From the NCBI GenBank assembly GCA_001940985.1, contig MSHB01000026.1, forward strand, positions 2,215 through 66,214: DNA of 64,000 bases, read 5' to 3'. Under the pieces are notes generated by a model, which searched no databases, was not told where the DNA came from, and was given only the letters and a program-made list of their open reading frames with translations. Of the stretch, positions 7,932 through 13,060 are shown piece by piece. How positions within the stretch are numbered: position 1 is the first letter of the stretch; every line of letters begins with the position of its first letter. A program made the translations under genes and the position numbers. The DNA comes from Mollicutes bacterium Phil14. Its GTDB lineage: Bacteria > Bacillota_I > Bacilli_A > ML615J-28 > CAG-698.

Positions 7932-8489
7932 ACTCTTCAGAAAATGACAAACATGTGGGGCGTAAGTAATAAAATAGTATTGTATAATGATAAACTAGCA
8001 ATAGTCATTATACTAAATTGCTAGTATTTTATTATGATCGTGCGGACGTAAAAATCATGTATACTAATAAGGATAATGTGACAGTTATCCTGCTACAGTA
8101 TTAAAACTTTGTGAGAGTCAAAATTGAATCCTTATCATAGAACGTAGAAGGAACAACGTCTTATTAATATATTAATACAGCGGTATTAGTATAGAAATAA
8201 GTTTACTTATATCTATTCATATAAGTAGTAAAATACAAATGTAAAATCCATAGAATAGTATGGCGTCATTAGTTAGTATTCCGATTAGAAAAGACTAGTG
8301 TAGAGAAGTATATGTAACATATCACATTAAACACATGTGCTTAATATGAATATCAAGGCATACCCAGTTCTATGCTAGTCTTACTTTTATTTGTATATCG
8401 TCTGCCAGACTTTATATAGGTGGAGACTTCGGTCAACCCAGGAGAGTACTATGAGAGAGAGCATAGTACTCTTTCCTTTTATTTGTTTT
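7932..8489 (+). ncRNA. candidate discrete structured RNA ending at a strong terminator
   Basis: ORF-free with stops in all frames. Hairpins at 7994-8002/8017-8025, and GAC-TTCG-GTC near 8425. Closed by the 8443-8489 terminator. Confidence 0.35.
8443..8489 (+). terminator. rho-independent terminator
   Basis: 11-bp stem AGAGTACTATG/CATAGTACTCT with loop AGAGAGAG, followed by TTCCTTTTATTTGTTTT. Confidence 0.8.
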
Positions 8490-11998: not shown

Positions 11999-12298
11999 CT
12001 TATCAGTACCTTGTGTCACGATAAGAAAGAATATATTCTAATCATGCATACGGGGATTTTGCAATTACCTATGGAGCTATTCACAGAATATAAACTTTAA
12101 TACTCAGTATATACTTCGGTGTATACTGAGTAGATAAATAGAAAACGTGCCACTGATCATGTGCCTAAAGATCTAAAGGTATTCCTCAGTGTTAGGAATA
12201 TGCTTCTAACTATAAGTACCTTGTGTCAACATAGTTAGACTAGTCTTATGACGATAAACAGAAATCTATCAAGAGTTATATATGAGTACCTCGTGTCT
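11999..12298 (+). repeat. three copies of AGTACCTYGTGTC, two displayed in hairpin loops
   Basis: Copies at 12005-12018, 12215-12228 and 12285-12298. The first two sit in loops of the stems CTTATC/GATAAG (11999-12025) and CTAACTAT/ATAGTTAG (12206-12238). Confidence 0.6.
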
Positions 12299-12492: not shown

Positions 12493-12651
12493 ATGAACAG
12501 AGGAAGACATAAAAGCTTGAAAAAGAAGATTAAGTATATGTCAAATGAACAGATGCTTAAAATGTTAGAAGAAATGAACAATATTAAAACTGATTGTAAA
12601 GAATTTATTGAGCAATGTATTGTTTACTCTAACTATAGTATTAAAAAGTAA
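12493..12651 (+). CDS. hypothetical small protein (52 aa)
   Basis: MNRGRHKSLKKKIKYMSNEQMLKMLEEMNNIKTDCKEFIEQCIVYSNYSIKK. The first 20 nt are identical to the start of 13563..13832. Confidence 0.4.
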   Translation: MNRGRHKSLKKKIKYMSNEQMLKMLEEMNNIKTDCKEFIEQCIVYSNYSIKK

Positions 12652-12957
12652 AACGACTGTTAGGTCTATGAATCACTGTTTGGACACGGGTTTGATTCCC
12701 GTCACCTCCACGAATATGTTTCGATTAAGAGAGAGAGTCTACCGTTTAATGCATTTCATACGACTCAGTGAGATTTCTCACTTAAACTGAATAGAAATGC
12801 ATTATTTTAATCGGGGGTGAATGAGTTTGACAGGCAGAATGTGAAGTAGAATAGGTCGCATGCAGATAACTGGCAACACAAGTTATGTAACGGATTATAC
12901 TCGTATTGCAGCGTAATATGAGAATCCAACGGCTAAGCTAATGTCGTAAAAAGCTGG
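12652..12957 (+). ncRNA. ssrA: circularly permuted (two-piece) tmRNA-like gene
   Basis: The upstream piece ends GGAC-ACGGG-TTTGATT-CCCGT-CACCTCC-A (12682-12710). The downstream piece starts GGGGGTGAATGAGTTTGACAGG (12813-). The two strands form a 7-bp acceptor stem with G3:U70 and discriminator A. Tag-like frame at 12872-12916: GNTSYVTDYTRIAA-TAA. Confidence 0.7.
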
Positions 12958-13030
12958 AGTACTATAGTTGTAATTGGTAAAATATAACACTGATAAAGTT
13001 AAGTTACAGGTTCAAATCCTGTTAGTACTA
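12958..13030 (+). tRNA. tRNA-Ile (anticodon GAU)
   Basis: Acceptor AGTACTA/TAGTACT. T arm ACAGG-TTCAAAT-CCTGT. Anticodon loop CTGATAA, with an A:A mismatch closing the stem. Hand fold, 73 nt. Confidence 0.7.
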
Positions 13031-13060
13031 CTATAAAATTAATCAATAATTTAAAACACT

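Follow-up and report, generated by a model that had tools for sequence, protein, structure and literature searches.

tmRNA is the RNA that frees stalled ribosomes. The pseudoknots PK1 to PK4 are typical of this RNA, though not universal, and the processing of tmRNAs made of two pieces has reportedly been established (Keiler, Shapiro and Williams 2000; Sharkady and Williams 2004). In the two-piece tmRNAs of alpha-proteobacteria, a beta-proteobacterial group, and cyanobacteria and in their marine phage copies (e.g., Melnitz; PMC9004378), the acceptor piece lies upstream and the acceptor stem and P2 connect it to the coding piece, an arrangement shared by the locus described here. Published two-piece tmRNAs of phages include those of Melnitz, pelagiphages, and cyanophages (PMC9004378).

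For crAss-like phages, Table S1 of Buchholz et al. 2022 (PMC9004378) gives 14 CrAssphage genomes with a tmRNA, and 8 of the 9 examined among these are marked "Permuted", including cr115_1 and cr114_1. RefSeq carries the feature "transfer-messenger RNA, SsrA" at the place homologous to our locus in the Suoliviridae genomes cr114_1, cr60_1, cr125_1, cr52_1, and cr115_1. A tmRNA database paper from 2025 comprises 79 bacteriophage sequences and does not discuss crAss-like phages, Yutin et al. 2021 make no mention of tmRNA, and the literature searched held no analysis of the crAss-like tmRNA family beyond pipeline mentions. As RefSeq and the 2022 table already list crAss-like tmRNAs, the gene analyzed here joins a catalogued, barely studied family, and the novelty in a crAss-like phage that was implied when the gene was first predicted from its sequence has to be withdrawn.

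Detection and Layout of the Locus

The window, i.e., the whole 64,000-nt stretch of DNA that was analyzed, has its nearest records among Suoliviridae genomes from human feces (~77% identity over the polymerase region), and the Pfam families found in it include crAss muzzle and tail-ring proteins. The strings and coordinates on which the original prediction of a permuted tmRNA-like gene at 12652–12957 was based (12682–12710, 12813, and 12872–12916) are all present in the window sequence. The detectors it had named as a check, ARAGORN and Rfam covariance models, both gave a positive result. ARAGORN called a permuted tmRNA (tmRNA*) at 12621–13007 on the + strand with the same tag, and the Rfam 15 model RF04321 (tmRNA_permuted) scored 55.1 bits at 12652–12916, above its gathering score of 47 (whole-window E = 5e-8; model positions 1–213 of 213), the acceptor piece lying upstream of the coding piece. 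RF04321, which takes the window above threshold, is a general model built from the alpha, beta, and cyanobacterial groups; the lineage models RF01849, RF01850, and RF01851 stayed below their gathering scores. The beta_tmRNA match (35.9 bits against 84) covered the tRNA-like part only, and no alpha_tmRNA or cyano_tmRNA match was listed, any overlapping match to another family of the clan (which would include alpha_tmRNA, cyano_tmRNA, and standard tmRNA) having scored lower than the listed beta_tmRNA match. An unconstrained MFE fold of 12652–12957 recovered the acceptor stem, the T-arm, three P2 helices, the tag-end hairpin, and the tail hairpin. The signal at 12652–12957 is far beyond chance. 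Judged from sequence comparison, the segment is very probably an ssrA gene in circularly permuted form, carried by a crAss-like (Suoliviridae-type) phage and belonging to a large phage family of such genes.

The features of the locus are listed in Table 1. The 5' boundary at 12652 is that of the Rfam match, and an ORF of 59 codons ends at 12651, just upstream of the acceptor piece. After the discriminator A12710, the genome reads A-CGA; CCA is thus not encoded, as had been noted from the start, and since the intervening segment begins with CGA, with only the C following the discriminator, CCA must be added after trimming. The intervening segment contains a long hairpin at ~12747–12804 (fold −22.6 kcal/mol, z = −2.4). 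At the other end of the locus, AAAAAGCUGG comes after the tail hairpin and has its last base at 12957.

Table 1. Features of the predicted permuted tmRNA locus, with positions in the window.
Feature	Position	Strand	Sequence or remark	Basis
Acceptor piece (= 3' half of standard tmRNA)	12652–12710	+		Rfam alignment, covariation, MFE fold
P2c strand, acceptor piece	12654–12657	+	CGAC	covariation, MFE fold
P2b strand, acceptor piece	12665–12668	+	UCUA	covariation, MFE fold
P2a strand, acceptor piece	12676–12682	+	CUGUUUG	covariation, MFE fold
T-arm and acceptor 3' strand	12682–12710	+	GGAC-ACGGG-UUUGAUU-CCCGU-CACCUCC-A (GGACACGGGTTTGATTCCCGTCACCTCCA)	sequence
T-stem	12686–12690 with 12698–12702	+	ACGGG/CCCGU	covariation, MFE fold
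T-loop, acceptor piece	12691–12697	+	UUUGAUU	
Acceptor 3' strand	12703–12709	+	CACCUCC; discriminator A12710 next	
Intervening segment	12711–12812	+	102 nt; presumed removed in processing	
Coding piece (= 5' half of standard tmRNA)	12813–12957	+		sequence, ARAGORN, Rfam, fold, covariation
Coding-piece start	12813–	+	GGGGGTGAATGAGTTTGACAGG (GGGGGUGAAUGAGUUUGACAGG)	sequence
Acceptor 5' strand	12813–12819	+	GGGGGUG; pairs with CACCUCC 12703–12709	
D-loop analogue, coding piece	12820–12830	+	AAUGAGUUUGA	
P2a strand, coding piece	12831–12837	+	CAGGCAG	
P2b strand, coding piece	12847–12850	+	UAGA	
P2c strand, coding piece	12855–12858	+	GUCG	
Tag frame	12872–12916	+	GGC...GCG TAA = GNTSYVTDYTRIAA, then stop; no start codon	ARAGORN
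Helix H5, two-tier hairpin	12892–12927	+	GGAUU...AAUCC outer, CUCGUAUUGC/GUAAUAUGAG inner	MFE fold, family variants
3' tail hairpin	12929–12947	+	ACGGC-UAAGCUAAU-GUCGU	MFE and centroid folds
tRNA-Ile (GAU)	12958–13031	+	abuts coding piece	ARAGORN; Rfam tRNA, 59.6 bits

Covariation of the tRNA-Like Domain and P2 in Relatives

In INPHARED, 14 records match the region, none of which covers more than one third of the 701-nt query. The crAss-like RefSeq relatives named above (cr114_1, cr60_1, cr125_1, cr52_1, and cr115_1) show ~80–87% identity to the window over the matched parts and the same order of the pieces, and have the conserved 5' motif, the 3' tail, and a downstream tRNA or tRNA-like element in common with it. 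At least 120 IMG/VR contigs with homologs, mostly ~100 kb and crAss-like, were found with the tail motif, which is 19 nt long and comes from the coding piece's 3' tail; a pattern of T-arm plus CACCTCCA matched mostly unrelated phage tmRNAs, by the T-arm only.

A 7-bp pairing of 12813–12819 with 12703–12709, including G3:U70 and followed by the discriminator A12710, had been predicted and is seen in the sequence, and the compensatory conservation proposed as a check on it was found in relatives. In 105 loci, the acceptor 3' strand is exactly complementary to the 5' end of the coding piece, with G3:U70, and it ends at a fixed distance of 56–58 nt from the conserved 5' motif GACUGUUAGGUC. The exact complement was a parsing requirement for the 105 loci, and the relatives were chosen by the tail motif, so that both the perfection of the acceptor stem and the conservation of the tail are partly built in. 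The fixed spacing is evidence for the pairing that is independent of this selection; chance occurrence of the 8-mer is expected in <3% of the 1.7-kb upstream stretches. Seven variants of the acceptor stem occur (GGGGCAU, GGGGCUG, GGGGCUA, GGGGUAU, GGGGAUG, GGGGGUA, and the window's GGGGGUG), with positions 5 to 7 covarying in the family alignment; compared to the other 104 loci, the stem GGGGGUG/CACCUCC is unique to the window. G3:U70 is present in 68 of 68 unique relatives, the apparent exceptions in a 30-sequence count being three misaligned rows.

Covariation was counted in a 30-sequence alignment with a specified structure of 29 pairs (866 cells). Standard pairs occupied 95.2% of the cells, compared to 77% after shuffling and 35–48% for slid partners. 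Changes on both sides were observed in 19 of the 29 pairs, the covariation score was 0.44 as opposed to 0.05–0.14 for slid partners, and none of 500 shuffles reached any of the observed pairing measures. Some of the cells left unpaired trace to three misregistered rows and to an extra G that the window has in P2a. Covariation is seen in the T-stem and in each of P2a, P2b, and P2c, none of which was used to select the sequences. The 5-bp T-stem has standard pairs in 68 of 68 sequences, with three to four pair types per position, and the three P2 helices are 89–100% paired, with 11 of 17 pairs changed on both sides. The pairing AGGCAG/CUGUUU, initially offered as a possible link between the pieces, proved to be helix P2a. 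P2c of the window is shorter than that of its relatives, with 4 bp and a C:G in place of their U:A.

One caveat raised at the outset was a U instead of C at position 56. The U is indeed present, and the doubt attached to it is cleared by A19 in the D-loop analogue: in 10 of 10 unique sequences with UUUGAU[CU] T-loops (U at position 56, i.e., T-loop position 3), GA replaces GG in the D-loop analogue, so that the elbow pair G19:C56 becomes A19:U56. This U56/A19 elbow variant and its own 102-nt intervening segment distinguish the window from the RefSeq crAss-like relatives. The two separated segments are thus predicted to be able to form a tRNA-Ala-like domain, with a 7-bp acceptor stem, G3:U70, discriminator A, a 5-bp T-arm, and an A:U elbow.

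Two sets of relatives depart from this pattern. Some (e.g., L124, L208, and L133) have non-canonical T-loops (UAUCGUAU, GGCAGUG, or UUCGCC) and altered D-loop analogues with the T-stem kept, which suggests a relaxed or altered elbow geometry; their contact with SmpB and the ribosome may therefore differ. In ten IMG/VR loci (e.g., L139, L183, and L201), the coding piece starts with AAGGGUGUGAAAUAGUAUUGAACC, with three G instead of GGGG, and the parser did not place an acceptor partner; these loci may form a divergent or degenerate sub-family.

Tag Frame, H5, and Tail

The three P2 helices would link the tRNA-like domain to an mRNA-like part that comprises AUAACU, GGC, a tag frame of 14 codons, and a stop inside H5. 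The resume codon GGC lies at 12872–12874, directly after AUAACU, and the UAA stop at 12914–12916. The original prediction had already placed an open frame here, ARAGORN reported the same tag, and the frame is open in 68 of 68 unique sequences, which encode 19 related tags, all ending in A. Related tags are assigned by ARAGORN to the RefSeq crAss-like relatives; tags of the window's family in these take the forms GNTSYV[TM]DYTR[IL][AV]A and GNFYVTDYTRIAA. Within the 68 unique sequences, the resume codon is GGC (n = 54) or GAC (n = 14), AUAACU stands upstream of it in 51, and the tag stop is UGA (n = 39) or UAA (n = 29), never UAG. Helix H5, which spans the last part of the tag frame together with its stop codon, was listed in ~40 distinct forms; all of them fold to an equivalent two-tier hairpin with differing stem sequences, i.e., they covary.

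The conserved coding features bear on whether the RNA could be a tmRNA-shaped decoy or competitor that occupies host SmpB, AlaRS, or stalled ribosomes and damps host trans-translation without productive tagging. A pure decoy would need neither an open tag nor an A-stop end, a resume context, or H5. In the phage family, however, all 68 unique sequences preserve an open tag frame, in which the changes are conservative; the last residue of each tag is A, and the stop after it is UAA or UGA; the AUAACU-type resume context is retained, and H5 covaries around the stop codon. A precedent for such an inhibitor exists in the CDS-less tmRNA-like gene of mycobacteriophage DS6A, which is reported to inhibit endogenous tmRNA in E. 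coli (PMC11915505), and the phage RNA's lack of any pseudoknot and the odd T-loops of some relatives are in line with it. On balance, we consider a decoy highly unlikely.

None of the pseudoknots PK1 to PK4 was found in the RNA, where P2c and the resume codon are 13 nt apart and 41 nt remain after the stop codon. The early view that there is no room for PK2–PK4 holds. The proposal that GGUCGCAUGCAGA resembles the PK1 region was rejected, because 13 nt between P2 and the resume codon leave no room for this pseudoknot and the PK1 pairs are flagged as non-standard in the Rfam alignment of the window.

The 3' tail is invariant among the loci picked by the tail motif. In the divergent cr4_1, it reads ACGGC-UCGCCAUU-GUCGU; the stem is kept, the loop is changed, and CUAA is lost. 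A second pairing suggested early on, of the 5' end with the 3' tail (ACGAC/GUCGU plus UUAG/CUAA), competes with P2c; the invariant relatives do not discriminate between the two, and both are compatible with the variation seen in the window and in L138. Since the tail of cr4_1 loses CUAA and keeps its local hairpin, we prefer, on the strength of this one sequence, P2c together with a local tail hairpin, and the pairing of 5' end and tail is not favored.

Insertions and Genomic Neighborhood

The intervening segment of the relatives spans 15 to 216 nt, or ~600 nt where it holds an endonuclease ORF, and its sequence is not conserved. The ~600-nt form is found in cr113_1 and cr56_1 (L124 and L125, 900–1501), with the annotated endonuclease on the opposite strand, and a tRNA-His lies inside the intervening segment of cr114_1 (L001, 2567–2639). 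In other relatives, the acceptor piece itself is interrupted at the T-loop region, which applies to cr4_1 (L123, NC_055893, 598–1412), cr6_1 (L130, NC_055894, 314–1242), and nine further IMG/VR loci (e.g., L136, L157, and L174). A group I intron (Rfam, 75.4 bits) separates the T-loop from the 3' strand of the T-stem in cr4_1; in cr6_1 and others, an insertion of ~870 nt with an endonuclease ORF inside follows GGGTT. The exons flanking the T-loop insertions restore a normal T-arm, and these genes are both permuted and intron-interrupted. The tmRNA genes of cr4_1, cr6_1, cr113_1, and cr56_1, with an intron or endonuclease gene inside, were missed by ARAGORN, Rfam, and RefSeq annotation.

Downstream of the coding piece, every relative inspected has either a tRNA (a tRNA-Leu in the case of cr60_1) or a minihelix that resembles the acceptor and T-arm of a tRNA. 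Close upstream of the tmRNA gene, relatives have RAGATH-9, RAGATH-20, or RAGATH-7-assoc RNAs scoring 100–158 bits (L129, 1142–1321; L127, 1075–1243; L001, 2043–2210; L126, 929–1030; L130, 184–305). At the corresponding place, 12080–12173, the window has no more than a weak RAGATH-20-like match (34.8 bits against 101.4, E = 0.0014). At 7933–8060 (+), the window also matches the full model of the Hatchet self-cleaving ribozyme RF02678 (95.3 bits; gathering score, 51); cr114_1 has such a ribozyme as well (L001, 685–813). A scan for sigma-70 promoters and intrinsic terminators around the tmRNA gene revealed nothing above chance; crAss-like phages have their own transcription machinery, and the scan therefore says little.

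Comparison to Gut Bacteroidales tmRNAs

Pseudoknots are absent from the window RNA, unlike from the two-piece tmRNAs of alpha-proteobacteria, the beta-proteobacterial group, and cyanobacteria. The tmRNAs of gut Bacteroidales (Bacteroides, Segatella, Parabacteroides, Odoribacter, and Muribaculaceae) are encoded in one piece and not permuted, and their genes measure 394–400 nt, as opposed to ~205 nt in two pieces for the phage RNA. Both share a GGC resume codon after UAAYU, a tag start G-x-[TN]-x-Y, an AA end, and the 5'-part string UGG.UUUGACAGCG; in their 3' part, gut Bacteroidales tmRNAs and typical members of the phage family have GUUUGGACGAGGGUUCGAYUCCCUC in common. The gut Bacteroidales tags, GETNYALAA or GENNYALAA, bear out the resemblance to the Bacteroides tag start G-x-T-x-Y that had been noted when the gene was first described. 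They are 9 residues long, whereas the phage tag has 13–14, with a V-T-D-Y-T-R stretch inserted. The Bacteroidales segment from P2 to the resume codon is ~50 nt longer than that of the phage and has room for PK1, and the CCA end is encoded in at least one gut Bacteroidales tmRNA gene (one of five shown), whereas the window gene lacks it. Permuted tmRNAs have also been tabulated for Bacteroidota genomes (PMC11915505, Table S2).

The 25-nt T-arm/P2a string typical of the phage family, GTTTGGACGAGGGTTCGAYTCCCTC, was found in at least 120 genome contigs, all Bacteroidota among the titles listed. Many elements integrate into ssrA, and the identity of this string to the 3' ends of Bacteroidota tmRNAs would agree with an upstream piece that is merely an attachment-site remnant of a host ssrA 3' end and matches the downstream piece by chance. 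Covariation between the upstream and downstream pieces (seven acceptor-stem variants, three P2 helices) already contradicts this account. Moreover, the Pfam listing for the window (25 families) contains no integrase, and the phage tail motif was found in 6 of 185,579 species genomes, none of them assigned to Bacteroidota. The likelihood of an attachment remnant is thus practically negligible. All six tail-motif hits are MAG contigs assigned outside Bacteroidota; as one of them, a contig labelled as Sphaerochaeta MAG (L488, MSGT01000071.1), is 100,100 bp (100.1 kb) long, the six are probably misbinned crAss-like phage.

The Bacteroidota-like T-arm/P2a string, resume context, and tag start are a pointer to a separate permutation event. 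The simplest reading of the sequences is that this phage lineage captured a host-type tmRNA, which was permuted and pared down in the phages. The likeness to Bacteroidota may also stem from convergence on the requirements of host SmpB and AlaRS.

TAG Recoding of the Late Genes

TAG recoding of the phage had been part of the original prediction and was located in the late block. In the minus-strand block at ~34001–64000, ORFs of at least 150 aa (stop-to-stop) add up to 2994 aa in the standard code; reading TAG as sense raises the sum to 9907 aa and extends the longest late-block ORF from 517 to 4195 aa. Recoding is absent from the first 34 kb of the window, which include the tmRNA gene. No suppressor tRNA was found in the window, whose only tRNAs are Ile-GAU, Arg-UCU, and Trp-CCA. 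As in the window, the late block is TAG-recoded in cr114_1 and cr60_1, where the annotated terminase, portal, capsid, and tail genes contain 1–31 in-frame TAG codons; all three of the tmRNA-bearing genomes examined thus have TAG-recoded late genes.

The phage tmRNA might accordingly be specialized for the TAG-recoded late program, rescuing or tagging ribosomes where failed suppression makes them pause at an in-frame TAG. The recoded late block in all three genomes and the absence of UAG among the tag stops of the family speak for this idea. However, the co-occurrence comprises three genomes of one family and is confounded by ancestry, recoding being common in Suoliviridae (formerly the Delta group), and the tmRNA gene itself sits in the standard-code early block. 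In addition, tmRNA acts poorly on a ribosome that stands at TAG with intact mRNA downstream, unless that mRNA is cleaved. We therefore regard this specialization as unlikely, and a link between tmRNA and TAG recoding is speculative.

A more general account appears to us a serious but far from assured possibility. The tmRNAs of crAss-like phages would have a permutation origin of their own, from a Bacteroidota-type tmRNA, and would have been reduced to a pseudoknot-free two-piece RNA of ~205 nt with a lengthened tag, which tolerates group I introns, homing-endonuclease genes, and tRNAs; it would be kept because trans-translation matters in phages with TAG-recoded late genes.

Proposed Processing and Function

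At all three junctions, the features fit tRNA-type processing. From the variable, unconserved intervening segment and the tRNA-type processing sites, we infer that the precursor is probably cleaved to two base-paired RNAs. A single precursor would be transcribed, and RNase P would cut before G12813 and before the tRNA-Ile at 12958, the latter cut creating the 3' end of the coding piece. The processing of tRNA 3' ends would trim the acceptor piece to A12710, followed by CCA addition, and the mature pieces of ~62 nt and 145 nt would remain base-paired. The RNA would then be charged with alanine by host AlaRS and brought to stalled ribosomes by host SmpB and EF-Tu. The nascent chain would gain A-GNTSYVTDYTRIAA and be released for proteolysis; tagged proteins would bear C-terminal A-GNTSYVTDYTRI.. 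peptides.

The Pfam listing for standard-code ORFs of at least 95 aa in the window (25 families) does not include SmpB, and tblastn of the window with an approximate E. coli SmpB sequence gave nothing better than E = 2.6, the window being only a part of a genome whose relatives measure ~100 kb. As no SmpB was detected in the window, the RNA would depend on SmpB, AlaRS, and EF-Tu of the host. The likely benefit to the phage is that ribosomes would be kept free during infection. The phage-specific tag suggests that the fate of tagged proteins differs somewhat from that given by the host tag.

Significance of the Phage tmRNA Family

Annotation of the gene is routine, as standard tools detect it and relatives are already labelled; the value lies in the family, an abundant phage-borne tmRNA of the human gut. 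Three of its traits are undescribed in the literature searched: an RNA of ~205 nt without pseudoknots; a tRNA-like part and tag start that match the host Bacteroidota tmRNA, not the classic permuted lineages; and the introns, endonuclease genes, or tRNAs inside the gene in some relatives. The family has the smallest coding tmRNA architecture among those compared here, its permutation appears to be independent and to derive from a Bacteroidota template, and it co-occurs with TAG recoding. It opens questions on the minimal needs of trans-translation, on why phages carry a ribosome-rescue RNA, and on whether the longer tag redirects tagged proteins.
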